Positions 9,516 through 33,963 of a stretch of 40,613 nucleotides of DNA are shown here, in pieces. Numbering within the stretch: position 1 is the first letter of the stretch; each line of letters starts with the position of its first letter. The stretch is taken from the sequence record PZ019082.1; one strand, written 5' to 3'. The position numbers and the translations under genes are program-made. The stretch is from a phage. Under the pieces are notes generated by a model that saw only the letters and a list, made by a program, of their open reading frames with translations, was not told the DNA's origin and ran no database searches.

Positions 9516-9928
9516 TGGGCTACTTTGAGGACTTAACAAAAGCGTTCGATGTGCCGCTGGTAGCCTTCGGAAACGCCAACGGCATCAAGGTAGCGCTTGA
9601 AAACATCGACGCGCCGACGTCAACCGATACCCCGTATCTGGCAAGTTACATATTGCTGGCAGATACGGAACAGGCGGATTTGTTCTTCACGGAACAACGC
9701 TCAGGTGTTTATCAGGTTGACATTAACTACGCATCGGTGAAAGGTAGCGCGCCAATCAATAAAATGGCAGACTTACTTAACACGGCGTTTAAAGCAGGTA
9801 AGACATTTTCACGTAACGACATCTGCGCCGAGGTACAATCGGTTAGCCTGGGGCCACTGATTGTAGAAAACGGATGGGCCAAACGACCATTGTCAATTAA
9901 CTTTATTGCATTCACCAAGAGGCTGTGA
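9512..9928 (+). CDS. putative tail terminator protein
   Basis: ATGA overlap coupling; synteny. Confidence 0.35.
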   Translation: MMGYFEDLTKAFDVPLVAFGNANGIKVALENIDAPTSTDTPYLASYILLADTEQADLFFTEQRSGVYQVDINYASVKGSAPINKMADLLNTAFKAGKTFSRNDICAEVQSVSLGPLIVENGWAKRPLSINFIAFTKRL

Positions 9929-9930
9929 AT

Positions 9931-11100
9931 ATGGCTACAACTCCTTTTAAGGGCGCGAATACCGCGCAATTCTATGTGGCGGAAACTACCCCGGGAGTAA
10001 CACCGACTAACCCGGTCTGGTCACCGTTGCGTAACACTGGCGGTGTTCCTGCGGTAACCCGCGATGCGCTTACTTCCAACGAACTGGATGGCAGCCGTGA
10101 AACTACATCCATCCGAACCGGTAACAAACAGGTTAGCGGGGAGTACGCCATTGAACTTAGCTCGCGTAGTCAGGATGATTTCCTCGCAGGCGCGATGACT
10201 TCTACGTGGCAGGATGGCGTAACTTTAACTGCGGTCGGTATTACGGTAGACCCGGTTCTTAAAACGTTCACCCGCGCCGCGGGAAGCTTCATTACCGACG
10301 GTGTAGAAGTCGGAGACCTTCTGTACTTCGATGGATTAACCGGCGACAACGCCAAACCGTTCATCGTTACCTCAGTAACGGCTACGGTTGTTACAGGGGC
10401 GGGTATCCAACACACCCTGACCGCTGAAGGCCCTATTGAGACCGACGGTAAAACGGGCGACAAGCTGGAAACCGGTAACGCGTGTAAGACATTCTCCATC
10501 CTGACGTGGTTCAAGGGCCAGTGCGGTAACCCTGACGCGTACATGCTTACCAAAGGCGTGGAAATCTCTGGCTTCACCGTAGAGCAGGCGGTTAACGCTA
10601 TGGTAACCGGTAGTTTCCCGTTCATCGGCTTGAGTCAGGAGATTCTTACCGCACCGCCGTCTGGCTCTGATTTCTCTCAGGTGACGTTCACCGATGAGCC
10701 ATTCTCGTCTGTAGATGTGTCTGTGTTCGACGGTTCTACGCCGTTGCGTTGCGATACTCTGACAATCACCAACGACAACAGTGCATCCGCGCAGTTCGAA
10801 CTCGGAAACAGTAGCGTTGCGTTCGTGGAACGTGGCCGCGCAGCTAACACCTTCTCCATCTCAGGAAAGCTGTACGACATGGCGATGATTCAGAAGTTTA
10901 TCAACGAGCAGCAGGTAGAGATTAACTCTATTCTGGCGGGGGTAAACGGGGCTATGTCTTTCAGTTTGAAACGCGCGGAACTCACCGCGGTTACACCTGA
11001 GATTGGCGGACCTGAGTCAATCACTCAGTCCATTGAAGGTCAGGCTACCGGCAACCAGTACCAGTCGTCTATTGTTATCCAGCGTATCACCTACGCATAA
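9931..11100 (+). CDS. putative major tail protein
   Basis: 389 aa ORF, ATG with RBS AGAGG (track start GTG 9925); last gene before tail chaperones; followed by strong hairpin. Confidence 0.5.
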   Translation: MATTPFKGANTAQFYVAETTPGVTPTNPVWSPLRNTGGVPAVTRDALTSNELDGSRETTSIRTGNKQVSGEYAIELSSRSQDDFLAGAMTSTWQDGVTLTAVGITVDPVLKTFTRAAGSFITDGVEVGDLLYFDGLTGDNAKPFIVTSVTATVVTGAGIQHTLTAEGPIETDGKTGDKLETGNACKTFSILTWFKGQCGNPDAYMLTKGVEISGFTVEQAVNAMVTGSFPFIGLSQEILTAPPSGSDFSQVTFTDEPFSSVDVSVFDGSTPLRCDTLTITNDNSASAQFELGNSSVAFVERGRAANTFSISGKLYDMAMIQKFINEQQVEINSILAGVNGAMSFSLKRAELTAVTPEIGGPESITQSIEGQATGNQYQSSIVIQRITYA

Positions 11101-11105
11101 AACTA

Positions 11106-11128
11106 AGGCCCCGAAAGGGGCCTTTTTC
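11106..11128. terminator. bidirectional terminator-like hairpin
   Basis: AGGCCCC-GAAA-GGGGCCT stem; TTTTT on plus side, TTAGTTTT on minus side; separates convergent genes. Confidence 0.65.
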
Positions 11129-11359
11129 TTACTCATCAATGTTACTCCTGTACTCCCGTAACTTCTCCAGACTTTCAATTGCTTCTGCTAAGTCGGTTCC
11201 GGTGTCCTTGTGTCCACGAAGGCCCATACACAATAGCTTCTTCAATGCGTGCTGTAACGCCGGGTCGCGGATGTCGAAGGCGCGGAGCACATCATAAACG
11301 TCTACTGTCATAGTGCTGCCGTGGGTGTTTGTCATTGTGCGGTTGTATTTTGAAGTCAT
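11129..11359 (-). CDS. hypothetical protein (76 aa), last gene of minus-strand cassette
   Basis: ATGA overlap with upstream phosphoesterase gene; ends at bidirectional terminator. Confidence 0.5.
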   Translation of the reverse strand: MTSKYNRTMTNTHGSTMTVDVYDVLRAFDIRDPALQHALKKLLCMGLRGHKDTGTDLAEAIESLEKLREYRSNIDE

Positions 11360-12486
11360 CCCAGCATCTCCGGTGAAATAGTTAAACGTGCCACCTCGCC
11401 ATATTCGGCGCTATAGGTAATTACGTTTGCACTACGGCCCGACATCCATCCTCCGCGCGATGCGTAGGCGTCTTTAGCCGCTAGGGTGCGGTGTTGCTCA
11501 ACAATCATGTTACGGCTTTCTACAATCTTTTGGTGGTGTAGATGTCCGACATGCGCGTAACTGTACTCGCTTTCGCCGAACGCTTTGCGGAACTTGGCAA
11601 TCATAACTGGCTCTATAGCGTCGAATCGTGCTTTATGTCCGTGGTGAAAGAACAGCGTCGTTTTGCCGTGTTGCACCATCTTGTAAACATCAGGCGACGT
11701 ATCGACGAAAACACGCGGCTCGTTGTCGTACAGCGTACTGAACATCTCAGCCAACCAAATCATACCCGATTCGTCATGGTTCCCTTGCACGATAAGCAAG
11801 CGAACATTTTTATGCTTAACCAGCGCCATATCAATAACACGGCGGACCATGCGAATCATGTAGCGGACAAGTTTCTGATAGCGCGTGTCAGCGTCAAGAA
11901 CATGACCACTCGCTGGCGTAACGGCATCCAGACTATCGAAGTGAGCGAGGTCGCCCAGCAGATTAATAACTCCTGTTCCTGCATCCGGTGCTTTCTGAAA
12001 TGCCGCGTCGAACCAGCGAGAGAACAGGTCTTCCGCAATCTTCATGTCCCAGTCGTCGCCGCTCTCGTCAGCCCATGCCAGCATACCGAGGTGGAAATCA
12101 GATACCGTGTAAAGATTGAGTAGCTTGTCGTCACGTTTGGCGCGAACGGCTTTAACAGGAGCAACGGGAGTAATCTCTGACTTCATGCCCTCGATTACGG
12201 CTTTCATCAACTCTACCTGACGTTCGGCGTCAGTGTCGGTCTTAACCCATTGCAACTTAGTGTTGCCGAACTCATCAACCAGTGACGACGTTCCTTTAAT
12301 CTTGTAGCCATCTGGTACGAGGTGGCTAACGTCACGCCCGTGACCTACGCCTTTCTTAGCCAGTTTCGCTTTACGGATACGAATAACTCGGTCTGAGATG
12401 CCGTATTTACGGGCGATGTCTACATTCTTCAACCCGGCGTTCAATTCTTCCTGTAACTGTTCGTCGGTTATTTTCTTCTGGGCCAT
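11356..12486 (-). CDS. metallophosphoesterase (calcineurin-like) with N-terminal HTH-like domain
   Basis: Motifs DFHLG, GDLAHFD, GNHDE, FFHHGH, GHLHH in canonical order; N-terminal NVDIARKYGISDRVIRIRK; strong RBS GAGGAA. Confidence 0.7.
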   Translation of the reverse strand: MAQKKITDEQLQEELNAGLKNVDIARKYGISDRVIRIRKAKLAKKGVGHGRDVSHLVPDGYKIKGTSSLVDEFGNTKLQWVKTDTDAERQVELMKAVIEGMKSEITPVAPVKAVRAKRDDKLLNLYTVSDFHLGMLAWADESGDDWDMKIAEDLFSRWFDAAFQKAPDAGTGVINLLGDLAHFDSLDAVTPASGHVLDADTRYQKLVRYMIRMVRRVIDMALVKHKNVRLLIVQGNHDESGMIWLAEMFSTLYDNEPRVFVDTSPDVYKMVQHGKTTLFFHHGHKARFDAIEPVMIAKFRKAFGESEYSYAHVGHLHHQKIVESRNMIVEQHRTLAAKDAYASRGGWMSGRSANVITYSAEYGEVARLTISPEMLG

Positions 12487-12516
12487 GCTTACTTCCTCGT
12501 GTTTAGGATTTGTCTT

Positions 12517-12544
12517 ATAGTAGCCTACTTATTATCTTGAACAA
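12517..12544 (-). promoter_or_regulatory. sigma70-like promoter (TTGTTC-N16-TACTAT), early-promoter family
   Basis: Minus-strand TTGTTCaagataataagtaggcTACTAT shares aagata..taggcTACTAT with promoter at 35301-35329; upstream of phosphoesterase gene. Confidence 0.4.
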
Positions 12545-12818
12545 ACTTTTCAAACGCGTCCGCCTTTTCTTTACTATTAGGCGAGAAACGTTTGTGATTA
12601 CCCTCTCTCACCCATTTAGCATTGAACGCGTCCCATAAATCTGCGTTAACTTTGATGCTCTCTTTGATTTCCGAATCTTCCGGTTTAGCGACAGCAGCCA
12701 GAATTTTATGCAGAAGCTGAATCTGTTCATTTGCTCTCGAGGCTTTACTAATTACGATAAACAGAAACGCGGTCTGAATGGCGAGCACTACTACGGCAGC
12801 GATTAATAGTTCGAACAT
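12525..12818 (-). CDS. small single-pass membrane protein (97 aa)
   Basis: ATG at 12818 with RBS AGAGGAA (track ORF starts at GTG 12851); hydrophobic N-terminus LLIAAVVVLAIQTAFLFIVI. Confidence 0.5.
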   Translation of the reverse strand: MFELLIAAVVVLAIQTAFLFIVISKASRANEQIQLLHKILAAVAKPEDSEIKESIKVNADLWDAFNAKWVREGNHKRFSPNSKEKADAFEKFVQDNK

Positions 12819-12850
12819 GGTTATTTCCTCTGTAAGTAAAATGTATATCA

Positions 12851-12890
12851 CCGATAAGTGAATAGTACCCTATTATATTGGGGTGCGCAA
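12851..12890 (-). promoter_or_regulatory. early-type promoter (TTGCGC-N17-TACTAT), near-identical copy of 34301-34340
   Basis: Reverse complement matches 34301-34340 at 37 of 40 positions, including TACTATTCACTTATCGG. Confidence 0.6.
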
Positions 12891-12998
12891 GTAATGTGAT
12901 AGAATAATTTTGCACCTAGTGTCGCGCACGAAAAGCGGTTGGTTACCGCCTGGTGCATTTCTCTTTAACCAACAACCTCTTAACCAAAGGATTAAAGA

Positions 12999-13415
12999 AT
13001 GAAACTTTCTGATTTTTATTTTGCCGATAAACACGCAGAAGGCAGCCGTATGCCAATCCTACTGCCGAGTGGTGAAGACTCCGGTGAATGGTTGCAGGTG
13101 ATGGGGCCGGAATGTGACGTTGCGGTTCGCGCGGGGCGTGCCTTTGTATCAGCTAACTTCGCGCTGAAAGAGCAACTCGAAGAGCTTGATGCGAAATGCA
13201 AGGCAAAGAATGACTGGACCGAGTACAACGCAAAATATAACTGGATGGCGGAAGACCTAAACCGGCAACTGGCGGTAGAAGTTGTGACAGGCTGGTCCTT
13301 TGACGACGCGTTCTCTAAAGAAGCTCTGGCAACGCTGCTCAGTCAGTACCGCGGCCTTGCGGAAGAAGTGGTTAAATATCACACCAAGCTTCGCGAAGAA
13401 TTATCGGTAAAGTAG
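12999..13415 (+). CDS. putative tail assembly chaperone
   Basis: 138 aa ORF with RBS AGGA immediately upstream of tape measure region. Confidence 0.45.
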   Translation: MKLSDFYFADKHAEGSRMPILLPSGEDSGEWLQVMGPECDVAVRAGRAFVSANFALKEQLEELDAKCKAKNDWTEYNAKYNWMAEDLNRQLAVEVVTGWSFDDAFSKEALATLLSQYRGLAEEVVKYHTKLREELSVK

Positions 13416-13423: not shown

Positions 13424-13777
13424 TTGAAATATTTTTCGTGGCTCTATATCGAACTGCAGAAGAAGCAGAAGTTTGATGATATATCTAAGGGCCATGAAGC
13501 GGCGTTAATAGCGATGGGTATTATCGAAAAGGCGGAACGTAAGGGGCTAAAAGGCCCGGAGTGTCCGCCTGTTTTTTACCCGTTACTCGCTAAATACCGC
13601 GCCATTAAATTTCAACAGCGCGAAACAGCAGACCAGGTAGTTGTCTACCCGAGGGGGATGCTATCATGGGGCGACTTACAGGACTTCAAAGCAGCTACCG
13701 GAACAGACGTTAGTTTCTTTGAAGCGGATTTAATTATGGCGCTAGACGCCGTGTTCGAGGGCCGAGACGATGGCTGA
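13424..13777 (+). CDS. putative second tail assembly chaperone ORF (possible frameshift extension product)
   Basis: Frame -1 relative to upstream chaperone, open from 13376; track start is TTG with no RBS; ends overlapping tape measure start. Confidence 0.3.
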   Translation: MKYFSWLYIELQKKQKFDDISKGHEAALIAMGIIEKAERKGLKGPECPPVFYPLLAKYRAIKFQQRETADQVVVYPRGMLSWGDLQDFKAATGTDVSFFEADLIMALDAVFEGRDDG

Positions 13778-15959
13778 TACCGCATCGCTGGTAGCGAGAG
13801 TAACGGCGGAAGGTGCCGCTACTGCCGCCAAGCAATTAGATAACTTTGCTGCAAGTGCAACAAAGGCCGAAGCCGCTACCGATAAAATGACACCAGCGGT
13901 TAAAGAAGCCGCGGCAACTACCCCTAAATTCGGAAGCGCGGTTACAAACGTTTCCTACCAGTTGCAGGACTTTATCGTCCAGGTAAGCAGCGGGCAGTCC
14001 GCTTTACTTGCATTTAGCCAACAGGCCCCCCAAATGCTGTCCGGCTTCGGCGCGCTCGGAGCGGTGCTTGGTATCGCCGCGGCTGCCACCAGTGTGCTGT
14101 ATAACGCTTTCGGCTCGACTAATGAAGCCACTAAAAACCTTGAGTCGTCTACTAAGGCCCTTAACGCCGTTATCCAGACATCTAAAACCGGGGTTACAGA
14201 GTTATCCGACAGCTACATCCAACTGGCTACCGGAGTAGAAACGGCAACCGCATCACAGGCGCAACTTGAAGCGGGAATCGCGGGCGCGGAAAACACTATT
14301 GCGGCTATGAACGCCAAGTTGAAAGAAACGGCAGACATTAGCTATTTGATGTCCGGTTCTATCACTGGTGCTAATGATTCTCTGCAAAAAGGGCAAACCA
14401 ACACCTCCAGCTATACCGGATTCCTGTCGAGTCTGGCGGACCAGTTCGGTGTAACAAAACAGCAGGCGGAAGAGTTAATCCCGTTACTGGCGAGCGTAGC
14501 CGAGAAGCCCACACAAGATAACGTGCTGGCGCTCACCACCCGTATGGGAGAGCTTAGCTCAGCTACAGACAGCAAAGTCACTCCGGCGTTCCGTAATTTC
14601 CGTGCAGAGCTTCTCAACGCAATCGCTACACAAGACACTGCTAAAAAGTCGTTAGATATTCTCAAGGCGGCGCAATTAGGCCAGGCAGAAGCAACTAACT
14701 CCAGCACCGAAGCAACTAAGCAGAACATCACTAAGATGATTGAGTATGCTCAGGCTCAGTTGCAGGGTGCTAAAGCTGTGCTTGCATTTAACGCCGCACA
14801 GGACAAACAGCAATTTGCGCAGTCCGGTGCTACCGCGGAGCAGATAGCGCAGTACAACGAATTAATCAACAAGCAGTACGAGAAAGACGTTGCTAACTAC
14901 GATGCCGCGCAGCAGAAGAAAGCAGAGGCCGAAGCTAAATCGGCAGCTGCCCGCGCTAAGTCCGAAGCCGACAGACAAGCCGCACAGGAAAAACAGGCGG
15001 ATGCTTTCCTTACGCTCGTTAAGAAACAGAACTCTTCGGAAGTAGAACAAGTAACTATTGCTGCCGCAGAGAAGCAAAAGCAGTTAGACGAGTATTATGC
15101 GAAAGGTCTCGTCTCTCAGCAAGAGTACGAAACGGCGTCGGCAGATATCGCCAACGCTGCGCAAGAGAAAAAAGACGCTATTGTTGCTAAAGAACAAGAG
15201 CAACAGGCAAAACGCCAGGAACAGGCTGACGCGTATCTGGCCCAGTTACAGGCCAACTTCGAAGGCGAATCGGCAGAGCTTGACCGCCAGTATCAGGTAA
15301 AACAGGATAAGCTGGACAAGTTCCATGAAGAAGGCTTGATTAGCGAGGAAGATTACCAGAACGCTCTTGCGGACCTGCGCCAACAAAAAGCAGATGCACT
15401 AATCGCCGCCGACCTGTCTACATGGGGTACTATCGCCGCCAACGTTAAAAGTGCTGCGAGCGAGAATACTGCTTTGTATAAAGCCGCGGCTATCACGGAG
15501 GCCACCATTTCAACGTACCTGGCAGCGACAAAAGCACTGGCAACTGGTGGCCCAATCCTCGGCCCAATTCTCGCGGCGTCAACTATCGCGCTAGGTCTGG
15601 CTAACGTGGCTAAAATAAGTTCCGCACGTGAACAGGGTGGTCAGTTATCCGCAGGGCAGGCTTCCACCATCGCTGAACGCGGCAAACCAGAAGTTATCAT
15701 GCCCGCTGGAGCATCGCGCGTACGAACTGCGCAGCAGATGAAGGAAATTATGGGGCAAAACGGGTCTTCTTCCGGCCCGTCTAATGTTACCATTGTAAAT
15801 AACACATCGAGTCAGATTGGCAACGTATCCACAGAACAAGATGATGAAGGCCGTCTGCGTATCATCATAGAGGAGCAAGTTGCCGCGTCTTTGCAGAACA
15901 GCAACAGTAAGATTAGCAAGGCCCGCAAGGCCACAAGAAACGCGCCGGGGTTTAAATAA
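13770..15959 (+). CDS. tail tape measure protein
   Basis: 729 aa, Ala/Gln/Lys-rich coiled coil, C-terminal hydrophobic and Gly-rich segments; follows chaperones. Confidence 0.75.
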   Translation: MADTASLVARVTAEGAATAAKQLDNFAASATKAEAATDKMTPAVKEAAATTPKFGSAVTNVSYQLQDFIVQVSSGQSALLAFSQQAPQMLSGFGALGAVLGIAAAATSVLYNAFGSTNEATKNLESSTKALNAVIQTSKTGVTELSDSYIQLATGVETATASQAQLEAGIAGAENTIAAMNAKLKETADISYLMSGSITGANDSLQKGQTNTSSYTGFLSSLADQFGVTKQQAEELIPLLASVAEKPTQDNVLALTTRMGELSSATDSKVTPAFRNFRAELLNAIATQDTAKKSLDILKAAQLGQAEATNSSTEATKQNITKMIEYAQAQLQGAKAVLAFNAAQDKQQFAQSGATAEQIAQYNELINKQYEKDVANYDAAQQKKAEAEAKSAAARAKSEADRQAAQEKQADAFLTLVKKQNSSEVEQVTIAAAEKQKQLDEYYAKGLVSQQEYETASADIANAAQEKKDAIVAKEQEQQAKRQEQADAYLAQLQANFEGESAELDRQYQVKQDKLDKFHEEGLISEEDYQNALADLRQQKADALIAADLSTWGTIAANVKSAASENTALYKAAAITEATISTYLAATKALATGGPILGPILAASTIALGLANVAKISSAREQGGQLSAGQASTIAERGKPEVIMPAGASRVRTAQQMKEIMGQNGSSSGPSNVTIVNNTSSQIGNVSTEQDDEGRLRIIIEEQVAASLQNSNSKISKARKATRNAPGFK

Positions 15960-22863: not shown

Positions 22864-23001
22864 CTACTCTTCTGCTAACTTCTCCAGTACAAACGCCAGT
22901 TGCGCATTAGCGGCGTCTCTTTGCTGCCGTAGTCGTAGAACCTCTTCTTCGAGTTCCTTGATACGTTTTTGCAATGCTGGAATCGGCGCTACGATGTTCA
23001 T
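22864..23001 (-). CDS. small coiled-coil protein (45 aa)
   Basis: Not in ORF track; ATGA overlap with HNH stop; RBS GGAG 9 nt upstream; heptad-like KELEEEVLRLRQQRD. Confidence 0.3.
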   Translation of the reverse strand: MNIVAPIPALQKRIKELEEEVLRLRQQRDAANAQLAFVLEKLAEE

Positions 23002-23489
23002 GCGGTTTCTCCGTGGTTTTCATGAAATCCGTAAGCAGCTTCCGCGGCTTTACGCGCGGCAACAGCTTCGTTAAAATCATCAAACCTTCCAATAGTTTTT
23101 GTCTTTCTAAATTTGGTTATCTGCACCAACCACTTGCACCGCTCTTTGTCAAATGACACCCCTACCGCCCCAGACCTATTACGCCCAGTAGCCAGCCTGT
23201 TCATAGCGTTTTCTTGCTTAGTAACTACTCTTAAATTTGCGAGCCTGTTATCCGCGCGATTATGATTCTGGTGGTCTATTTCCATGCCGTCTGGTATAGG
23301 GCCATTGAACATTTCCCATATGACTCGGTGCGCGCGGTAGATAACTCCATTGTAGCGAAACTGAATGTAGCCGAACTTGTTTAGTGTTCCCGCTACCGCA
23401 CCTTTAGCAACATTTTTAGCGGGTTTTATGATCCATATCAGATTTCCAGTCTCTGGTTCATACCGTAGGACATTCTTCCAGATAAACAT
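22998..23489 (-). CDS. HNH endonuclease
   Basis: Motif EIDHQNHNRADNRLANLRVVTKQEN; TAATG overlap with upstream helicase stop. Confidence 0.8.
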   Translation of the reverse strand: MFIWKNVLRYEPETGNLIWIIKPAKNVAKGAVAGTLNKFGYIQFRYNGVIYRAHRVIWEMFNGPIPDGMEIDHQNHNRADNRLANLRVVTKQENAMNRLATGRNRSGAVGVSFDKERCKWLVQITKFRKTKTIGRFDDFNEAVAARKAAEAAYGFHENHGETA

Positions 23490-24910
23490 TATCGTTTCCT
23501 TCTCTTCATATAATTAAGTAGTTCGTCCTGTACAGACCTTTTCTCGTCTGTACGCGCGGCGACAACTTCATCAAGAGTATTTCGGGCTATTATTTGATAA
23601 ATGAATACAGACCGTTTGTATCCAGATTGCATCTGCCTTACCGGGCCTATACGCTCGATAACCTGCAGATAATGTTCCAGGTTCCACCCCTGACTAATAA
23701 ATGCCATGTGGTGTCCGCCATGTTGTAGCGACAGCCCGTGGCCCGCAGAAGCTGGGTGTATCAGGAGCATAGGTATCTCACCGCGGTTCCACGCTTCCAT
23801 CTGCTTATTGCCCTTAGCACCTTTTGCAAATGCCTGTGCTTGGGGGAATCGCTTAAGGATGCGCTCCAGTTCGTGCTTGAACTGATAGGCGACCAGTAAC
23901 GGCGCACCCTGTAACTCCTCAACAATTGACTCAAGCGCATCCAGTTTCGTGTCGTGCACTTTCTCCCATTCTTTGGTTGCTTCGCCGTCTTCGCCCGTCA
24001 CATACACAGCACCGGAAGCAATCTGCAAGCACTTAGCCGTTTTAGCGGCGGCGTTGGCGGCCTGCACCTCCCCACTCTCCAGTTCCGCGATTAACTTTTT
24101 CTCCATGTCGTCGTACGCCTGACGCGCTTTCTTCGGCAGGTCGATTTCAACCGGTACAATAATCGGCGCTTCACAACCAAACCACTCGGCGGGGTCGATG
24201 GTCAGGCTGATGTCTTTCATCTTCTGATGAATCTCATTATCGGCACCAGGTCGCGCGTGATATTCACGCGCCATAGCCGACTTACCTTTCTGTACCGAGT
24301 TAAACCAGCGGTCGGTGAATGCTGTGTACGATGAACCGAGTCGCTCACCGGCGTCGATAAACCAGTTCTGACCCCACAAGTCTTTGAGGCCGTTTGGCGA
24401 CGGCGTACCAGTCAGGTTGATGAAACGCCTAACCTTACCGAACGCCACTTTACTAAGCGCCTTTGCTCGCTTGCTTCCGCCAGAACGGCTACGGAATGAT
24501 TTAAGCTTCGTGCTTTCATCAGCAACAATAACGGTAAAAGGCCAGTCGTCTTTGCCGTAGTAGTCAATCAGCCACTCGATAACCTCGTAGTTGGTGCATA
24601 CCACGTTAGCGTCTGACTCCAGAGCCGCGATGCGGCGCTTCTCCGAACCTGTTGCATCGGCGACACTCAGACACGGGAAACCCCACTTAGTTTGTTCTGC
24701 GGGCCACGTACCAGACGCAACGCGCAACGGGGCAAGGATTAACACGCGGTCCTCTTCGGTAAGCTGCCCGTTGCGAAACAGTCGGTTGAGCACCCACATA
24801 GTAGAGGAGGTTTTACCCCCTCCCATGCCGCACCAGATATTACAGCGAGGGTGTTGCAACATGAACGAAGTCATGAGCTTCTGGTATTCACGCCTTTGAA
24901 ACTTACTCAT
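23489..24910 (-). CDS. SNF2/DEAD-like superfamily 2 helicase
   Basis: Walker A GMGGGKTSS, Walker B VIVADEST, motif III LTGTPSPNG. Confidence 0.8.
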   Translation of the reverse strand: MSKFQRREYQKLMTSFMLQHPRCNIWCGMGGGKTSSTMWVLNRLFRNGQLTEEDRVLILAPLRVASGTWPAEQTKWGFPCLSVADATGSEKRRIAALESDANVVCTNYEVIEWLIDYYGKDDWPFTVIVADESTKLKSFRSRSGGSKRAKALSKVAFGKVRRFINLTGTPSPNGLKDLWGQNWFIDAGERLGSSYTAFTDRWFNSVQKGKSAMAREYHARPGADNEIHQKMKDISLTIDPAEWFGCEAPIIVPVEIDLPKKARQAYDDMEKKLIAELESGEVQAANAAAKTAKCLQIASGAVYVTGEDGEATKEWEKVHDTKLDALESIVEELQGAPLLVAYQFKHELERILKRFPQAQAFAKGAKGNKQMEAWNRGEIPMLLIHPASAGHGLSLQHGGHHMAFISQGWNLEHYLQVIERIGPVRQMQSGYKRSVFIYQIIARNTLDEVVAARTDEKRSVQDELLNYMKRRKR

Positions 24911-25098
24911 TTTGCCACCAGAACTAACTCTTTACGTCCGAACGCCGTAACGTTACCGGTTACATCTTCAATAACCAGTTTACCGTTAGACTCGACGAAC
25001 ACCGTATCAACGGCAACAGGGCGACGGGTCTTAACGTTGAAAATCAGGTCACCAGGTACGATGTCACGTGCTGGTTTGCGGTCATATTCGTGTTTCAT
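24907..25098 (-). CDS. hypothetical protein (63 aa)
   Basis: ATGA overlap with helicase start; RBS AAGGA; preceded by promoter-like element 25132-25160. Confidence 0.45.
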   Translation of the reverse strand: MKHEYDRKPARDIVPGDLIFNVKTRRPVAVDTVFVESNGKLVIEDVTGNVTAFGRKELVLVAK

Positions 25099-25128
25099 TT
25101 CTCAATTCCTTATATTGTTGGTGTAGGG

Positions 25129-25413
25129 CTAACTATAATAGTTAGCTATTAGGTCGTCAACCTGTTTAAACGAACCAACGACAAAAACATTCGCGCCACG
25201 TTTACGCATCCGCGCGTGTTCACGTAGCTGGTGCGGGTCTGGCTTCGTGTTTTCGTCTTTCTTAACCTCGACGAACCAGACTATGCCGCCGGGGAGAATT
25301 ACCAGCAGGTCAGGAGCGCCTGAGCGCCCCTCGTAAGACAGCTTACGAACGAGGCCACCAATGGCCTCGAACATCTCTTTTGCGTATTTCTGAATCTTGC
25401 CTTCCGGGGTCAT
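25129..25413 (-). CDS. VRR-NUC domain nuclease
   Basis: PD-(D/E)XK-like motif PDLLV ... FVEVKK; 94 aa. Confidence 0.65.
   Translation of the reverse strand: MTPEGKIQKYAKEMFEAIGGLVRKLSYEGRSGAPDLLVILPGGIVWFVEVKKDENTKPDPHQLREHARMRKRGANVFVVGSFKQVDDLIANYYS
25132..25160 (-). promoter_or_regulatory. sigma70-like promoter TTGACG-N17-TATAGTTAG
   Basis: Minus-strand TTGACGacctaatagctaactatTATAGTTAG; lies within the 3-prime end of the VRR-NUC coding sequence; same architecture as 28687-28715 and 30806-30834. Confidence 0.5.
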
Positions 25414-25562
25414 GAGCGCAGAACCCAGGTTATAAACGCTCCTCCGAGAACGGCAACGCCAACAAACTTAAAGAACAGGCCGTAACAGAACATCGCAGCT
25501 ATTCCCGCGCCGAGTAACAGTGCGAGCATGGTTACTATCGCCCAAAATACAAACATTGTCAT
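25410..25562 (-). CDS. small hydrophobic membrane protein (50 aa)
   Basis: Not in ORF track; RBS GAGGGG 10 nt upstream; ATGA overlap with VRR-NUC start; sequence almost entirely hydrophobic. Confidence 0.35.
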   Translation of the reverse strand: MTMFVFWAIVTMLALLLGAGIAAMFCYGLFFKFVGVAVLGGAFITWVLRS

Positions 25563-25644
25563 AATACGCACCCCTCGCGTTTCGTGTGCTCAATACCGCA
25601 GCGCGGACAGATTCGGCAGTCTTCTTCGTAGAACCAGTAAATTT

Positions 25645-25776
25645 TCATTCCAGCACCCACAGATAAATTGCGATGAACATTCCCAATACCGCAGCCATCA
25701 TGCCGTATTGGCCCTCGTGACAATAGACACCGGCGGCAAATCCTGCCAGTAACGCGATAATCAGTTTACTTAGCAT
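25645..25776 (-). CDS. small hydrophobic membrane protein (43 aa)
   Basis: Not in ORF track; ATG overlaps last codons of DNA polymerase gene; RBS GGAG; hydrophobic throughout. Confidence 0.35.
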   Translation of the reverse strand: MLSKLIIALLAGFAAGVYCHEGQYGMMAAVLGMFIAIYLWVLE

Positions 25777-27946
25777 AGCGCTTCATCTCCGCACCTTCTG
25801 CCACAAGAGGGAACCCTTCGGCCCATTCCGGTAATTCGCACATTAATTTTTCCAGTTCAGCCACCGTGTACTCAGGTGTGTCTGGAGTTTCACACACTAA
25901 TTCATCGTGTACCGAAAGCACGATGGGGTACCCGCCGCCCTCAACATTAATCATCGCGTATGCGAGTAAATCACGGCACAGCGCCTGAGTGCAGTTTTCC
26001 ACCAGTTTACCGGAGTAGGTGTACTGGAAGCCCCACTGACGGGTTAACTGGTTTTCGCCCTGGTACTTGATGCGCACGTTAGTGGACACCTTCCCGTCTT
26101 CGTCTGCCTCTTTAGACACACTTAACCCGACGCCCGGATAAGACATAACGCGGCCCGACGGCAACGTCATGCGCAGCCACCAACCAGCGACTTTGTTGCC
26201 GTTGTTATCTGTTTCTACGTTACGCGAAAACTTAACTCCCCGCGGACCTGCAGTGAACTCTTTACCTGGGTTGCGGATAGCCGCCATAGCTGCGTCTTCA
26301 ATATCACGCCAGAATGCTACTGTTTCAGGGTGAGACTCCCGCCACATGCGCTTGATAGCGTCACAGGTGCGCCACACTTTCTTATCAAGAATATATGACG
26401 GCCGGTCGTCTTTTTCACCAGGACGTGGTTGTCGCTTGGCTTCCTGAATACGTGCCCACTCATATCCACGTGCGGTAGCGGTCCAGATGTGGTCGGGGAA
26501 AGTACCGTCCATTGTTTTAGCCATATCAACCAGGTCAAGGCCGAGGTTCTTGGCGAACTGTACGAATGCGCCGACACCGCCCGCGTAGCCAAGACCCAAT
26601 TCACAGGCTTTACCAATCTGGCGTAAGTCTTTACGTTCTTTCTTAATGTAATCCGGATCCATGCCAAACATCTTACCCGCGGTTACACAGTAAATATCCA
26701 GCCCAGCGCGGAACGTATCGAGCGCGGTTTCTTCTCCCGCCAGCCACGCAAGCCCACGGCCTTCAACGTTAGAGTAATCGGCAACGACAAACTTATGCCC
26801 TGCTTCCGGGATAATGCAGCTACGAACTGTCGATGCCGTCAGCTTGGCTACGTCAAATCGGCGGTGAGCACGACCCTTAAGTAACGCTGAAATGCCTTTA
26901 TCCAGTTCATCATCATGATAGTACCCGCGGGCCAGGTTCTGCGGCTGAAAGCCTTTACCCGCCCATCGCAAAGTACGTTTTGCCCCGCCGTACTGTAAAC
27001 AACCGCGGCGTCGGTCGTCCGACGAGCGGCCCAACAGCAGCGGGTTATATTTCGTTGATGCGGTGGATGCGGCCCCGAGGCGCATTTCGATAATCGTGCG
27101 AGCGTCGTCCGGTAAATCATCATCCGCCAGCAGGTCGTTAAGCGTCGACTTCTGCGCATTGTGGATGCGGTGCGCTGGCGCAAGTTCACGCAGAATCGGA
27201 AGGAAGTCTTTACCGGTAAGTGAGCCGCCGTATTTGCGTTGGGCTTCTTCCTGTAACTGTGCCTTGTGCTTCTCCACGGCTTCAATCGCTGCTTCTGCCA
27301 GCGCTACGTCAACCTTAAACCCGCGGTCGTTGATTAACTGGTCCAGTTCCAGTACACGGTCTTCAAACTCGGAGTTACCCCACCGCGGCAGCTTATGGAA
27401 GACTTCCCGCATCGCAGTGATGTCGCTCACGGCGTACTTGATGAACAGCGCCCACTCATCGGGATGTGTTTCAGCGGTGTAGCGGCGGATTTTGTAGTTC
27501 TTAGGTGTCGGTTTAGAAAAACGCTGAATCAGCGCCTTGCCGCGTTTGTCTTTTGCGTTGTCCGCAGACACGCCCAGCACTTCGCACAATGCGTCAAGTG
27601 AACCCGGCAGCGCGTGGCGAAACGCCCAAATCATCGTATCAATGGTGTTGCTTACCGGAATATCAAAGTCCCAGCAGTGTTTCATGATGAGCCTGTCGAA
27701 CATTGAGCCGTTGTGCCACACCATCTTAATGCGGCTGTTTGGCTTAACCAGACGGCGTAAGGCGCGGTGCAAATCCCCCGGCATGTCGCTGCCGTCTGTG
27801 CAATCCCATACCTGCACAGGCTCGTCGTCAAAAGCGTATGTGCAGATAAGCACTTCGGTAGTTGGGTGCTCTGCGTAAGCGTATGAACCGACTTTCTTTA
27901 AATCGGCTTCGGAGAATGTTTCAAAGTCTAAGAACAGGTAACTCAT
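25766..27946 (-). CDS. family A DNA polymerase with N-terminal 3-prime to 5-prime exonuclease domain
   Basis: Exo I FLDFETFS; motif A DYSNVEGR; motif B K..LGLGYAGG; motif C VHDE. Confidence 0.8.
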   Translation of the reverse strand: MSYLFLDFETFSEADLKKVGSYAYAEHPTTEVLICTYAFDDEPVQVWDCTDGSDMPGDLHRALRRLVKPNSRIKMVWHNGSMFDRLIMKHCWDFDIPVSNTIDTMIWAFRHALPGSLDALCEVLGVSADNAKDKRGKALIQRFSKPTPKNYKIRRYTAETHPDEWALFIKYAVSDITAMREVFHKLPRWGNSEFEDRVLELDQLINDRGFKVDVALAEAAIEAVEKHKAQLQEEAQRKYGGSLTGKDFLPILRELAPAHRIHNAQKSTLNDLLADDDLPDDARTIIEMRLGAASTASTKYNPLLLGRSSDDRRRGCLQYGGAKRTLRWAGKGFQPQNLARGYYHDDELDKGISALLKGRAHRRFDVAKLTASTVRSCIIPEAGHKFVVADYSNVEGRGLAWLAGEETALDTFRAGLDIYCVTAGKMFGMDPDYIKKERKDLRQIGKACELGLGYAGGVGAFVQFAKNLGLDLVDMAKTMDGTFPDHIWTATARGYEWARIQEAKRQPRPGEKDDRPSYILDKKVWRTCDAIKRMWRESHPETVAFWRDIEDAAMAAIRNPGKEFTAGPRGVKFSRNVETDNNGNKVAGWWLRMTLPSGRVMSYPGVGLSVSKEADEDGKVSTNVRIKYQGENQLTRQWGFQYTYSGKLVENCTQALCRDLLAYAMINVEGGGYPIVLSVHDELVCETPDTPEYTVAELEKLMCELPEWAEGFPLVAEGAEMKRYAK

Positions 27947-27963
27947 TATTTTCGACCCTTAGT

Positions 27964-27984
27964 AAAAAGGCCCAATGAAGGGCC
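27964..27984 (-). terminator. terminator-like hairpin (minus strand)
   Basis: GGCCC-TTCATT-GGGCC followed by TTTTT on minus strand, between DUF2815-like gene and DNA polymerase. Confidence 0.45.
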
Positions 27985-28005
27985 TTAGTTAAATTGATTC
28001 AGATA

Positions 28006-28632
28006 TTAGCGGCGACGACGTTCGCGGCGCGGTGCTTCATCTTCTTCGTCGTCTTCCAGGTCATTGACGCTTGCGGCGACTTTAGAACCACCAAACGCCT
28101 TACCTTCGCCGACGTATTTAATTCCCAGCAGTTTAACACCGAGGACTTTATATTTCTGGCTGAACCAGATTTCAACGCTTACGTTAGCGACGCATCCGCT
28201 GTAAACCTGTTCGCCTTCAATCTGTTCACCGTCTACATTGAAGTCCTGTTCTACCTGAGTCTCACCTTTTTTAGAGGTTATAATCAGCGGCTGTTTCTGC
28301 GCCTTCGCTTTGAAGTAGAAGCCTTCCGGGAAGTCTTCAAAGGGATTGTCACGCTCGGCAATGTCTTTAACAGCACATTTATCCATGTGCTTACCTTCGC
28401 CGTAGTTGGACCTCATCCACTTCTCTGCGGCGGCAGCACCTAACGCTTCTTCAACTACGGCGTAAACAGTGTCGTAAAGCGCATCGATTTGCGCATGGTC
28501 TGGCGGCAGGATAATAGTCGCGCTGTACTGGCCTTTAGTAATTGAGCCATCATCGTTTTCGCGGTCTTTTTCGCGTTCGAATACGTTAACCCAAGCAGTG
28601 TTTACTTTACGCAGATTTAATGTCAGTCCCAT
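28006..28632 (-). CDS. putative ssDNA-binding-like protein (DUF2815-like) with acidic/basic C-terminal tail
   Basis: 208 aa; position between DUF2800-like nuclease and PolA; C-terminus DLEDDEEDEAPRRERRRR. Confidence 0.35.
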   Translation of the reverse strand: MGLTLNLRKVNTAWVNVFEREKDRENDDGSITKGQYSATIILPPDHAQIDALYDTVYAVVEEALGAAAAEKWMRSNYGEGKHMDKCAVKDIAERDNPFEDFPEGFYFKAKAQKQPLIITSKKGETQVEQDFNVDGEQIEGEQVYSGCVANVSVEIWFSQKYKVLGVKLLGIKYVGEGKAFGGSKVAASVNDLEDDEEDEAPRRERRRR

Positions 28633-28686
28633 CTTGATTTCTCGCTTTTAAGTTTACTCCGGGAAGCTGCCCGGCCAGTGATTAGA

Positions 28687-28715
28687 ACTATAATAGCTAA
28701 CTATTCAGGTGTCAA
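28687..28715 (-). promoter_or_regulatory. sigma70 consensus-like promoter TTGACA-N17-TATAGT
   Basis: Minus-strand TTGACAcctgaatagttagctatTATAGTTC in intergenic region upstream of 28632 start. Confidence 0.6.
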
Positions 28716-28719
28716 CACT

Positions 28720-29961
28720 TTATTCTAAATCTTCTCCACTAACCTGATTCCACTCAGGCCGTTTGTCGTCTGCCGTTGCAACGCATGGCGCTCCCGGCTT
28801 ACGGGTAATGAAGTCTTTCAGTTCTTCTTCCGGTATTACTTTAACAGCTTCGGTCGGTGTCATTAGCACTTCTTTAGTTAGCTTGTCGCCGTAGAGTTCT
28901 GTTACTTTCTCCGCGTCTTTCCACGCACGATTACTGGGACGGCCTTCAACCAGTTTGTACCCAGGCACTTTCTTACCTGAATGCAAAGCGGCGGCCATCG
29001 CTTTTTCAACCTTGTCGATGTGCTGGCGCAACAGCGGCAACTTCTCATACTCAGCTACGAGTTGCTCAGGCGTAAGTTCCAGCGCAAAGTCGTCCTCCAG
29101 TTCTTCCGCCAGTACCGCGTTAACGGTTTTTGTACGCGCGGCGCACTGTTCTGAGAACCGACACCACTGACAACCATCTGCAGAAGGCTTGAAGTCCGAC
29201 GCTTTCAGGTTCTTCTTGCCGCGGGAATAAGCATCAAGAGCCAACAGCGCGCGTTTATGTGCGAACTTAGCGAACAGTTCCAGACCTTCAACCGAGATGT
29301 CCCACTCCGACGCACCGCCAGCATACGGCTGGAAGATTACCAGACGAACGGTTGTTATGTTATAACGTCTCTTGAGTCGGCGATAAACACCGAGAGCGTA
29401 AAGCATAAGCTGCTTGTTTTCTTTCGCTTCGACGCGATGTCGCCCGGTTTTAAGGTCCCCAATAATGAGCATGTGCTCGTCGGTGTTAGCCAGTTCCTGA
29501 ACGGCAACAAGGTCAGCGGTCCCGAACGTCTCAACGCCTTCATACCCAGGATGCAATACCTCAGTGAGATTGACGCGCATTTCCAGCTTGGCGTAAGTCG
29601 CAACGTCGATAATCGCTTTGCAGTAGTCGGTATACTTGCGCACCTGCTCAATCATGTCAGCCGTAATCAGTACCGCGCCTTTCACCGGGCTGATTAGAGC
29701 CTTAATCTGACCTTTGCCCTCATCCAACACGTAAGCACCAACTTCACGCTCTAATGGAAACGCAGTGCCTTTGATGTACTGGTTAAGGTGCATTTCCGCT
29801 ATGGTGTGCATAGTCGTACCTAATACTGCGGCCTTACCGGACGTGTTAGGAATATCTTTTTCACAGGCCAGTGATGCAGCACAGCTTAGCCACTTTTTAG
29901 CGCCAGACGGCGACAGCAGGGCGTGCACATCGTTATTGCCGCCGCGTTCTTTTAAAATCAT
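28720..29961 (-). CDS. PD-(D/E)XK nuclease with Fe-S cluster cysteines (DUF2800 / Cas4-like)
   Basis: N-terminal HALLSPSGAKKWLSC and C-terminal CQWCRFSEQC cysteine pattern; ATG at 29961 with ATGA coupling (track start GTG 29976). Confidence 0.55.
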   Translation of the reverse strand: MILKERGGNNDVHALLSPSGAKKWLSCAASLACEKDIPNTSGKAAVLGTTMHTIAEMHLNQYIKGTAFPLEREVGAYVLDEGKGQIKALISPVKGAVLITADMIEQVRKYTDYCKAIIDVATYAKLEMRVNLTEVLHPGYEGVETFGTADLVAVQELANTDEHMLIIGDLKTGRHRVEAKENKQLMLYALGVYRRLKRRYNITTVRLVIFQPYAGGASEWDISVEGLELFAKFAHKRALLALDAYSRGKKNLKASDFKPSADGCQWCRFSEQCAARTKTVNAVLAEELEDDFALELTPEQLVAEYEKLPLLRQHIDKVEKAMAAALHSGKKVPGYKLVEGRPSNRAWKDAEKVTELYGDKLTKEVLMTPTEAVKVIPEEELKDFITRKPGAPCVATADDKRPEWNQVSGEDLE

Positions 29962-30230
29962 ACCCTGTTCTCCCACTGGTCGATTAAATGTCGTGTCTTA
30001 TGCCCACAATGCATAGCCCACCCATACATCGACTCAAAAACATAAAAGTCAGGCTTGGCGAAAGTCGTGCGCTTAATCTGTGACACGTGACGGCCTAAAG
30101 ATATAGGCCGCGGTACTTTGCCTAAGTACGCCATCTCTTCCATCTGGTGCGCACCGGACGGCGCACGCAACAGCCATAGTGCCTCCGTGTTGTCCCGCCT
30201 GTCTACGGCCCGGTAGAGTTGGTAAATCAT
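29958..30230 (-). CDS. hypothetical protein (90 aa)
   Basis: RBS GAGGG; coupled to downstream nuclease gene; contains HCGHKTRH. Confidence 0.45.
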   Translation of the reverse strand: MIYQLYRAVDRRDNTEALWLLRAPSGAHQMEEMAYLGKVPRPISLGRHVSQIKRTTFAKPDFYVFESMYGWAMHCGHKTRHLIDQWENRV

Positions 30231-30250
30231 AATTCCGACCCTCAGTTAAA

Positions 30251-30266
30251 GCGGCCCGAAGGCCGC
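30251..30266 (-). terminator. weak terminator-like hairpin
   Basis: GCGGCC-CGAA-GGCCGC palindrome; only a short T-run on minus strand. Confidence 0.3.
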
Positions 30267-30273
30267 GAGATAG

Positions 30274-30774
30274 TTAGTCTTCTTCGAAATACTTGTTCTT
30301 GATTGCCGTCAGGCGTTCAAGGTATTCAGCAAGGTCTTCATCTTTAATCGCGGCAATCTTCATCTTCTTACCGGTGAACTCCTCCAGCAGTTCATCAGAA
30401 TCATCACACGCGGCATCGCTCGGACCTTCGTTAATGGCGTCGTCGATAGCCTGAATCTGGTCACGCAGAGACTGGTAATCGACTTCTTCTTTCTCTTCTT
30501 CCGGCTCTGGTGTCGGCTCCTCTACTTTAGCTTTACGCGGCTTGCGTTTTGGCTTCTCTTCTTCAACCGGTTTAGTATCAACTACGTCTTCACCTTCGAC
30601 CGGGATTTCTTTTGATCCTTCTTCTGCACACTTGGCTACTGCTTCTTTGGTATACGCTACCGTCTCTACTTCCAGAGGCGCGGAAACCTGAACAACTTGT
30701 TTCACGCTGTTCGCAGCAATCAGTTCATGAGCAACTACGAAACGTTCCAGTAATACTAAGAATTTCTCTAACAT
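30274..30774 (-). CDS. highly acidic early protein (166 aa), function unknown
   Basis: Strong RBS GAGGAGAGA; first gene after promoter 30806-30834; Glu/Asp-rich with one KPKRKPRKAK patch. Confidence 0.5.
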   Translation of the reverse strand: MLEKFLVLLERFVVAHELIAANSVKQVVQVSAPLEVETVAYTKEAVAKCAEEGSKEIPVEGEDVVDTKPVEEEKPKRKPRKAKVEEPTPEPEEEKEEVDYQSLRDQIQAIDDAINEGPSDAACDDSDELLEEFTGKKMKIAAIKDEDLAEYLERLTAIKNKYFEED

Positions 30775-30805
30775 TTGTTTCTCTCCTCTCGTTTGGTATG
30801 GGCTA

Positions 30806-30834
30806 ACTATAATAGCGAACTATTCACATGTCAA
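30806..30834 (-). promoter_or_regulatory. sigma70 consensus promoter TTGACA-N17-TATAGTTAGCCC
   Basis: Minus-strand TTGACAtgtgaatagttcgctatTATAGT followed by conserved leader AAACGAGAGGAGAGA. Confidence 0.65.
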
Positions 30835-33460: not shown

Positions 33461-33736
33461 TTATTCCAGGTCGCGGGAGATATTACCCTCGGGGACCAAC
33501 ACTTTTCCAATACTTCTCGCTTTCCCGTTAAGCGGCGTTGCTCTTGTTGCCCGATAAAACTTTCCTTTATTAAGAACCTCTCCGTGTTGCTCAAGAACAC
33601 TTAAAGCATGTTTAATCGGATTTACACCGTAATTATCTAACCGGTATCTACGAAGCCCGTCTAGTGTAAAAGCGCCGTTCGCCTCGGTCAGTCTGCGTGC
33701 GCACATTAATACGTGTTTCTGGAATTTAGTTAGCAT
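33461..33736 (-). CDS. hypothetical protein (91 aa)
   Basis: RBS AAGGAG 10 nt upstream; overlaps end of upstream regulator gene. Confidence 0.45.
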   Translation of the reverse strand: MLTKFQKHVLMCARRLTEANGAFTLDGLRRYRLDNYGVNPIKHALSVLEQHGEVLNKGKFYRATRATPLNGKARSIGKVLVPEGNISRDLE

Positions 33737-33905
33737 CTTTTACGTTCTCCTTAATCCAAGCCTCCACGGTAGCGCGGTCAAATGTGCCTGGCTGCCGGTA
33801 GCCGTTAATAACCCGGCAACACTCGGGGAACTTACCTGACCGAAGCCAGCGATTAAGTGTCATAGGGGAAACTCCGATTAAGTCTGCTACTTCTTTCTGT
33901 GTCAT
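33726..33905 (-). CDS. AlpA-like / excisionase-like HTH DNA-binding protein
   Basis: MTQKEVADLIGVSPMTLNRWLRSGKFPE matches AlpA-type HTH pattern; ATG at 33905 with RBS AGAGGG (track start TTG 33935). Confidence 0.55.
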   Translation of the reverse strand: MTQKEVADLIGVSPMTLNRWLRSGKFPECCRVINGYRQPGTFDRATVEAWIKENVKDAN

Positions 33906-33934
33906 TTTACACACCCTCTTTATCAAGTGAAACA

Positions 33935-33963
33935 ACTATAACACCTACAATAACTAAACACAA
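33935..33963 (-). promoter_or_regulatory. putative promoter TTGTGT-N17-TATAGT for minus-strand regulatory/primase operon
   Basis: Minus-strand motif 29 nt upstream of ATG 33905; divergent from plus promoter 33968-33995. Confidence 0.4.

Follow-up and report, generated by a model that had tools for sequence, protein, structure and literature searches.

What are three minus-strand genes doing within the plus-strand structural block of a phage genome, and on what does the enzyme that they include act? The question is raised by positions 11,101 to 12,998 of the 40,613-nucleotide sequence PZ019082.1 (the whole of which is referred to here as the window), where the minus strand carries genes for a 97-residue protein (12525..12818), a 376-residue helix-turn-helix (HTH)-metallophosphoesterase (11356..12486) and a 76-residue protein (11129..11359). 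The open reading frame (ORF) coordinates of this trio, described in the original prediction made from the sequence alone, are confirmed. Sequence comparison identifies the 376-residue protein as a full-length member of the PHROG 704 HTH-metallophosphoesterase family (the orthologs of Bas01_0050), and the reading favoured here is that it is a metal-dependent DNA nuclease, to which a probability of about 0.5 is assigned. The cassette is a standard, already annotated feature of the Guernseyvirinae and not a new acquisition; hundreds of Kagunavirus and Jerseyvirus genomes carry it, annotated under names that do not agree, and it is routine by itself. Interest attaches to the family more than to the locus, as approximately 4% of sequenced phages carry such an HTH-metallophosphoesterase.

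The 376-residue protein comprises a LuxR/GerE-like HTH (residues 8-44), a β-hairpin followed by a helix (61-104) and a binuclear metallophosphoesterase domain (119-376). Its AlphaFold2 (AF2) model, with a predicted local distance difference test score (pLDDT) of 91.8 and a predicted template modelling score (pTM) of 0.78, exhibits a three-helix HTH at residues 8-44, a flexible linker, the β-hairpin (61-85), the helix (87-104) and the phosphoesterase sandwich. Five motifs occur in order, SDFH (130-132), GD (178-179), GNHD (235-238), HHGH (281-284) and GHLH (314-317), and residues D130, H132, G178, D179, N236, H237, H282, G314 and H317 are invariant in an alignment of 51 family sequences. The HTH is conserved across the same alignment, as is a linker motif, KG.S.LY..DG....QWVKT. 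The alignment and the model thus bear out the earlier claim that five metallophosphoesterase motifs follow an N-terminal HTH.

The match to phrog_704 spans residues 3-375 with an E-value of 1.2e-167. An exhaustive protein search returned 4670 family representatives at 50% identity, 1156 of them with E ≤ 1e-30, nearly all approximately 370-420 residues long and of identical architecture. The scores against the Pfam models PF00149 and PF12850 (Metallophos and Metallophos_2) are 19.2 versus 21.5 bits and 22.2 versus 27 bits, respectively, which is below the gathering cut-offs because the family is too divergent for these models; a search of NCBIfam gave no significant match. Two divergent phosphoesterase alleles occupy the same slot in the Guernseyvirinae, with 56-60% protein identity between the protein described here and those of BUCT823 (contig L084) and GRNsp50 (contig L085), while the neighbouring 76-residue protein stays 91-100% identical. 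Divergent enzyme alleles beside a near-constant neighbour suggest recombinational allelic replacement or diversifying selection on the enzyme.

A Foldseek comparison of the model with the PDB yielded 137 matches with E ≤ 0.001, so that the predicted metallophosphoesterase fold was indeed found. Matches of probability 1.0 include PolD DP1, Mre11, Rv0805, GpdQ, YfcE and LpxH; the PolD DP1 exonuclease and Mre11 head the list, and the phosphodiesterases Rv0805 and GpdQ stand at ranks 4 and 16. When the family profile was compared with PDB sequences, the catalytic domain had only non-significant matches, to Mre11/SbcD of T. maritima and the P. putida nuclease MPE. Motifs and predicted fold together place the protein in the calcineurin-like binuclear metallophosphoesterase superfamily; they lean to the nuclease branch and leave the substrate unfixed. 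Fold and motif pattern (D-x-H, GD, GNHD, H, GHxH) are common to the protein and to Mre11/SbcD and archaeal PolD DP1. In contrast, significant sequence similarity to them is absent, the window genes checked include neither a Rad50/SbcC nor a DP2 partner, and the N-terminal module of HTH and hairpin is peculiar to the phage family. No gene for a Rad50/SbcC-type ATPase lies next to the cassette or among the non-structural genes scanned, a check that left out the structural genes and is not exhaustive; the window ORFs of at least 400 residues are structural or replication genes by position and synteny.

The closest functional information comes from Bas01_0050 of phage AugustePiccard (Drexlerviridae), also 376 residues long, to which the protein is 46% identical over residues 1-376 (BLASTP, E 2e-117). 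Bas1 mutants that escape the defence system DRT7/UG10 carry missense or frameshift changes within the Bas01_0050 ORF, and the frameshift mutants are viable; Bas01_0050 is toxic in E. coli, which made its co-expression with DRT7 impossible, and lambda escapers of DRT7 lose the RecBCD inhibitor Gam instead (bioRxiv 10.64898/2026.02.16.706125). These results indicate that the ortholog is dispensable in the laboratory, harmful to the host and tied to a defence that senses disturbed DNA metabolism. The family has its wider value in being so common among phages, and a 2026 preprint now links one of its members to toxicity and DRT7 sensing.

Other phages offer precedents for a toxic metallophosphoesterase directed at host DNA. 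In T5, host DNA degradation requires the predicted metallophosphatase A1 and can be brought about by it alone; A1 is highly toxic, also modulates transcription and, according to the discussion of the paper concerned, is among the proteins that interact with the retron Ec67. The mycobacteriophage metallophosphoesterase gp48 is early and toxic, damages host DNA and was proposed as a counter-defence factor (PMC12287305). Homology of A1 to the family was considered and rejected, as hhalign gave a probability of 14.8% over 21 aligned columns around motif III, and Bxb1 gp47 was rejected likewise at 13%; both relationships hold at the superfamily level only. As neither A1 nor gp48 has detectable homology beyond the superfamily, they serve as functional analogies and not as family members.

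The likeness to A1 extends beyond the superfamily to the early-type promoter, to toxicity in E. coli (here that of the ortholog) and to a link with reverse-transcriptase-containing defence, Ec67 for A1 and DRT7 for Bas01_0050. The T5 pre-early operon (contig L072, 1706-4134) encodes A2 (an HTH protein), a small membrane protein with two transmembrane segments and A1, and so mirrors the parts of the cassette without detectable sequence homology. A1 differs in its length of 556 residues, in having no fused HTH and in being essential, whereas Bas01_0050 is dispensable. The metallophosphoesterases of cluster A mycobacteriophages (A10ZJ24 gp48, Bxb1 gp47 and L5 gp54) are likewise phage-encoded members of the superfamily; they differ in being approximately 255 residues long and in having no HTH. 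A literature search on the T1 gene for host DNA degradation and on essentiality in CM001 and in seszw, a Skatevirus, found nothing usable. Old of phage P2 is associated with RecBCD inhibition. In the BASEL paper, Kagunavirus and other small siphoviruses vary in their sensitivity to P2 Old, and the two together are a lead, not evidence.

A tblastn search found the 376-residue protein in 2053 of 50,697 phage records, from phages that infect Escherichia, Klebsiella, Salmonella, Vibrio, Campylobacter, Rhodobacter and further hosts. In the Drexlerviridae (Tls gp66, Bas01, AKS96) the phosphoesterase gene closes an operon of helicase and methylase genes and lies right before the lysis genes; in Dhillonvirus it is located between lysin and terminase genes, and in the T7-like Pectobacterium phage PP99 between the gene for endonuclease VII and those for polynucleotide kinase, dNMP (deoxynucleoside monophosphate) kinase and ligase. 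A neighbour census was taken over 68 viral contigs retrieved with one 35%-identical homolog. The commonest neighbours in these contigs are NinB, NinG, an antiterminator Q-like protein, lysozyme and small nucleotide-pyrophosphohydrolase-like proteins (dGTP_diPhyd_N, DUF3310 and DUF6378). The recurrent neighbours of the family thus belong to DNA and nucleotide metabolism and not to defence or anti-defence islands. PHROG 704 members such as Bas01_0050 and Tls gp66 match the protein described here over its whole extent in architecture and length and keep all the catalytic motifs. The setting is what differs: the genes of Drexlerviridae, Dhillonvirus and PP99 lie in replication, DNA-metabolism or lysis-proximal regions, whereas the Guernseyvirinae gene lies on the opposite strand within the tail module, where it has a promoter and a terminator to itself.

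The predicted promoter of the cassette is a 40-bp element (12851..12890, minus strand) consisting of TTGCGC (12890-12885), a 17-nt spacer and TACTAT (12867-12862). Its reported resemblance to the element at 34301-34340 on the plus strand is exact as to number, with 37 of 40 positions identical, three mismatches and no such match expected in shuffled sequences. A third copy of the pattern TTGCRC-N17-TACTAT is present at 35302-35330 (plus strand), and the copies at 34301 and 35302 precede rightward operons of small genes. The -35 and -10 hexamers of the cassette promoter are kept in fBC-Eco01 and Bas71, and the form in the Jerseyvirus SETP7 is TTGCAT-N17-TATTAT.

Overlapping the -10 hexamer of the cassette promoter is a palindromic element (12861..12874), AATAG-N4-CTATT, with the longer form TGAATAGT-N3-CTATTAT. 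A scan of the window gave ten matches where 0.09 were expected; removal of the opposite-strand reading at 34317 and of a weak match at 3344 leaves eight sites (12861-12874, 25137-25150, 28692-28705, 30811-30824, 30855-30868, 34317-34330, 35149-35162 and 35318-35331), of which that of the cassette is the only one outside the non-structural region. In the TTGCRC-N17-TACTAT promoters the palindrome covers the -10 hexamer. At 25137, 28692 and 30811, and more weakly at 30855, it lies in the spacer of near-consensus minus-strand promoters (TTGACA or TTGACG, a 17-nt spacer and TATAGT) that adjoin the helicase, single-stranded DNA-binding protein (SSB) and exonuclease operons. The cassette promoter of SETP7 has the palindrome at the same position in inverted orientation, as is expected of a symmetric operator. 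For fBC-Eco01, a PHIRE analysis reported seven occurrences of this motif, which was attributed to a phage RNA polymerase (PMC9825357). No RNA polymerase gene was detected among the window proteins scanned, and the motif is therefore read as an operator within promoters of the host RNA polymerase and not as a phage-polymerase promoter. The element looks like the operator of a phage regulator.

The 3' end of the cassette is marked by a bidirectional intrinsic terminator (11105..11124) that is common to the plus-strand tail-tube gene and the minus-strand cassette. The hairpin has an 8-bp stem with six G-C pairs and folding energies of -16.3 kcal/mol on the plus strand (z -3.6) and -18.7 kcal/mol on the minus strand (z -4.5). 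On the plus strand it is followed by UUUUUCUU; a U-run is present on both strands and is stronger on the plus strand, after the tail-tube gene. The annotation of fBC-Eco01 marks a terminator at the same site on both strands, and the bidirectional hairpin is confirmed.

The control element of the cassette is also that of the non-structural genes, and no surrounding structural gene has it, which supports expression independent of the late genes. With its own promoter, a shared operator over the -10 hexamer and a terminator, early or middle expression by the host RNA polymerase is most likely. The original prediction of early, independent transcription thus stands as regards the promoter, its non-structural type and the terminator, and the early timing is probable by analogy. 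A literature search on Guernseyvirinae transcriptomes found nothing usable. A second promoter-like element had been proposed at 12517..12544 on the minus strand. The pattern TTGTTC-N16-TACTAT is present there, overlapping the stop codon of the first gene, but it is poorly conserved: the -35 half falls within the variable first gene, and relatives have no more than rough equivalents of the -10 region. The element is therefore weak evidence.

In the favoured mechanism the cassette is a self-contained transcription unit retained by the Guernseyvirinae within the tail module. Its sigma-70-type promoter would serve the RNA polymerase of the host, so that the cassette would be expressed with the early or middle genes, and a factor binding the palindrome would later shut it off. 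By means of its HTH the enzyme, a metal-dependent DNA nuclease or phosphodiesterase, would stay bound to DNA; the target favoured here is the host chromosome or free DNA ends. The outcome would be host shutdown, a supply of material for nucleotide salvage and a perturbation of RecBCD-type end surveillance. The slot behind the promoter would serve to express exchangeable small envelope proteins, here a 97-residue YebO-like protein of foreign base composition, and the 76-residue protein would be a translationally coupled accessory. Host DNA in particular is proposed as the target with less confidence than a DNA nuclease in general. Among the three enzyme activities guessed at originally, the DNA-end nuclease is the one favoured, with its substrate a presumption.

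Several points weigh against the nuclease reading and the mechanism built on it. The early timing is deduced from promoter similarity, and we infer the substrate and physiological role of the enzyme. Rv0805 and GpdQ match the fold with E-values similar to those of the nucleases, the sequence matches to Mre11/SbcD and MPE are non-significant (E 0.36-0.96), and a Rad50/SbcC-like partner is missing among the window genes checked. The toxicity and the DRT7 link belong to a 46%-identical ortholog from the Drexlerviridae and not to this protein, to which they would extend by analogy, and T5 A1 and Bxb1 gp47 appear related at the superfamily level only.

A broader version of the nuclease reading is put forward tentatively, as possible but short of probable. 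The HTH-metallophosphoesterase family may be the host-chromosome-degrading nuclease of small siphoviruses (Guernseyvirinae, Drexlerviridae, Dhillonvirus), convergent with T5 A1 and with an A2-like DNA-binding function fused to it, and the resulting DNA damage or swamping of RecBCD may be the signal for DRT7-like reverse-transcriptase defences. If so, the two divergent Guernseyvirinae alleles would reflect an arms race with such defence sensors. The Guernseyvirinae gene lies in a small, self-contained and dispensable-looking unit, and is convenient for testing the nuclease role, HTH recognition, operator timing and the membrane proteins. Misleading database labels are corrected along the way, namely 'DNA polymerase II small subunit', 'transcriptional regulator' and 'phage RNA polymerase promoter'.

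The alternative that survives best, although we consider it rather unlikely, is an SbcD/Mre11-like end-processing nuclease that acts not on host DNA but on the replication and recombination intermediates of the phage itself, together with the T7-like gp2.5-type SSB, the exonuclease and the helicase. Databases label the family 'DNA repair exonuclease', the gene lies near NinB and NinG in lambdoid-like contigs, and among the genes of the window are those for a gp2.5-like annealing protein, an exonuclease and a resolvase-like endonuclease, with promoters nearby that carry the same palindrome. The Bxb1 metallophosphoesterase gp47 is needed for phage DNA replication. On the other side stand the lack of a Rad50/SbcC-type ATPase among the window genes checked, the non-significant similarity to Mre11/SbcD and the strong toxicity of the ortholog in uninfected E. 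coli, which fits an attack on host DNA more easily.

Two further alternatives have a small chance each. In the first, the protein would be an end-healing phosphoesterase, either a 3'-phosphatase or a 2',3'-cyclic phosphodiesterase, that works with polynucleotide kinase (PNK) and ligase to repair the cuts made by host defence nucleases. In bacterial Pnkp, end healing relies on a metallophosphoesterase domain, and genes for a PNK-type HAD phosphatase, a kinase and a ligase are linked to the family in PP99 and in a Kagunavirus contig (L080). However, the kinase in both of these matches dNMP kinase (phrog_139) and not polynucleotide kinase, neither PNK nor ligase lies beside the gene here, most family members are without both, and toxicity is not expected of a repair enzyme.

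In the second, the protein would be mainly a transcription regulator whose HTH binds the palindromic operator at phage promoters, the phosphoesterase domain being secondary. The N-terminal HTH resembles GerE/FixJ/LuxR (Pfam GerE, E 0.03), a PHROG of a late transcriptional activator is matched weakly (E 0.003), the eight palindrome sites near promoters include that of the cassette itself, and T5 A1 offers a parallel in its effect on transcription. Against this, the active-site residues that are invariant family-wide argue for catalysis, phages whose promoters are unrelated also have the HTH-phosphoesterase fusion, and other small HTH proteins, such as that encoded at 33726..33935, are just as suitable as candidate operator binders.

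The remaining two activities, both named in the original prediction, are disfavoured. A phosphodiesterase that breaks down the cyclic-nucleotide signals of host immunity (anti-CBASS, anti-Pycsar or anti-type III CRISPR) would suit the early-type promoter and the similarity of the fold to the cyclic-nucleotide phosphodiesterase Rv0805 and to GpdQ; it is made very improbable by the family-wide conservation of a DNA-binding HTH, by neighbours from DNA and nucleotide metabolism instead of anti-defence islands, by the toxicity of the ortholog in E. coli and by a PADLOC search that gave no match for any of the three cassette proteins. A Ser/Thr/Tyr protein phosphatase like lambda NinI (PP-lambda), a phage accessory protein of the same superfamily, is equally improbable even though the gene lies between NinG and Q in lambdoid-like contigs, where lambda carries NinI, as the protein shows SDFHLG, GDLAHFD and GNHDE where the PPP signatures would be GDxHG, GDxVDRG and GNHE, lacks the phosphate-binding arginine after motif II and has no PPP protein phosphatase among its best 50 fold matches.

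The earlier suggestion that the cassette is a moron holds for its first gene and is consistent with the presence of a separate promoter and terminator, but not for the cassette as a whole. The G+C (GC) contents of the phosphoesterase gene (50.8%) and of the 76-residue protein gene (48.9%) are native to the window (51.0%), both genes occupy a slot that is identical in Kagunavirus and Jerseyvirus, and the phosphoesterase family is widespread among phages, as noted above. The first gene, in contrast, has a GC content of 41.8% and a GC content at third codon positions (GC3) of 44%, versus a GC3 of about 56-60% for neighbouring genes, and is replaced in relatives. It is the only moron-like part of the cassette.

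The first gene probably begins at the ATG at 12818, preceded by a GAGGA ribosome-binding site, and not at the GTG at 12851 given by the mechanical ORF, because that GTG falls within the promoter. Its 97-residue product has a single N-terminal transmembrane helix and a resemblance to YebO (PF13974) that spans this helix and the adjoining stretch ASRANEQIQLL; with 20.2 bits against a cut-off of 27 (E 7e-4) it amounts to a resemblance only. A tblastn search found no match to the protein in the 50,697 phage records and none in plasmids or E. coli genomes. Among 5.8 billion proteins only seven clusters match, all at 87% identity or more, and the examined contigs that encode it have it in the same slot of Kagunavirus-like genomes. 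A blastn search with the slot of the first gene showed that the flanks alone are conserved (37% coverage). In relatives the place of the gene is taken by one for a 63-residue hydrophobic protein annotated 'superinfection immunity' (phrog_1039) or for a 108-residue protein with a signal-peptide-like N-terminus (phrog_14165), both unrelated to the 97-residue protein. The slot directly behind this constitutive-looking promoter is thus an exchange site for small envelope proteins, and the 97-residue protein plausibly acts in superinfection exclusion or at the cell surface.

The phosphoesterase gene has a GAGGAAG ribosome-binding site, and its stop codon overlaps the start of the third gene (ATGA), which suggests translational coupling of the two. 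The 76-residue product of the third gene matches the C-terminal 60-70 positions of phrog_2452, phrog_17613, phrog_13223 and phrog_18443, families with no other relation to each other, and is found in 774 phage records. The same domain forms the C-terminus of a 193-residue Acinetobacter phage protein and, in the Nonagvirus FritzHoffmann (an Escherichia phage), of the 252-residue bas20_0033 (contig L082, 1916-2674), whose gene lies in the 7-deazaguanine DNA-modification cluster, between those for QueE and Gat-QueC. Judged by these matches, the 76-residue protein is this phage domain occurring on its own. Its AF2 model (pLDDT 87.8) found no PDB match with E < 1, and Pfam holds no family for it as judged from 24 homologs scanned. 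The identification of the protein as DUF3310 was rejected, both on the absence of a Pfam match in these homologs and on an hhalign probability of 6% against the DUF3310 proteins that neighbour the phosphoesterase. It was also rejected as an obligate partner of the phosphoesterase, as a hidden Markov model search placed the two genes side by side in 3 of 77 loci, in the Guernseyvirinae only; adjacency limited to this subfamily indicates that the partnership is not a general one.

The 3' end of the cassette differs among relatives. In one contig (L078, 4460-4930) a gene for an HNH homing endonuclease is inserted between the phosphoesterase and 76-residue protein genes, and in the Kagunavirus contig L080 (4460-5680), which shares its first gene with this phage, the 76-residue protein gene is replaced by genes for a PNK-type HAD phosphatase and a dNMP kinase and by a gene for a 57-residue protein. 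GRNsp50 has an extra Roi-like DNA-binding protein at this end (L085, 3768-4439), and fBC-Eco01 has additional small ORFs (L001, 3099-3685).

The window as a whole is a near-complete Kagunavirus (Guernseyvirinae) genome. A megablast search with positions 11000-13000 matched 439 phage records at approximately 90% identity over approximately 83% of the query, almost all of them from Kagunavirus (Escherichia) or Jerseyvirus (Salmonella). The ORF map consists of a plus-strand structural block (1-22826), a minus-strand replication block (22998-33935) and a plus-strand block of small genes that starts at 34355. The replication block encodes an HNH endonuclease, a helicase, a resolvase-like endonuclease, a DNA polymerase, the gp2.5-like SSB, an exonuclease, a primase-helicase and a small HTH protein. 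A search of the whole window with Rfam gave zero matches. The cassette is flanked by plus-strand genes, named after the Pfam labels in a near-identical contig, with the tail tube gene (Phage_tube_2; 9925..11100) on one side and the genes for the tail assembly chaperones and tape measure (12999..13415, 13424..13777 and 13770..15959) on the other.

A candidate rightward promoter (12878-12905, plus strand) stands back-to-back with that of the cassette. An extended -10 element, TGATAGAAT (12897-12905), is joined in it by a weak -35 element, TTGGGG; its TGnTAnnnT pattern is kept in fBC-Eco01, Bas71 and SETP7, and the palindrome would fall at approximately -45 of it. Just 3' of it is a strongly conserved hairpin, GGCGGT-AACCA-ACCGCT (12939-12957). 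From such a promoter, transcription of the genes for the tail chaperones and the tape measure could resume past the terminator at 11105-11124.

A further observation concerns the DNA polymerase ORF (25766-27946), residues 445-538 of which match the endonuclease family phrog_93. A separate 94-residue ORF on the minus strand (25129-25413), downstream of the polymerase, matches the phrog_93 family and a Holliday-junction resolvase family as well, and a nuclease module may thus have been inserted in, or split from, the DNA polymerase gene.

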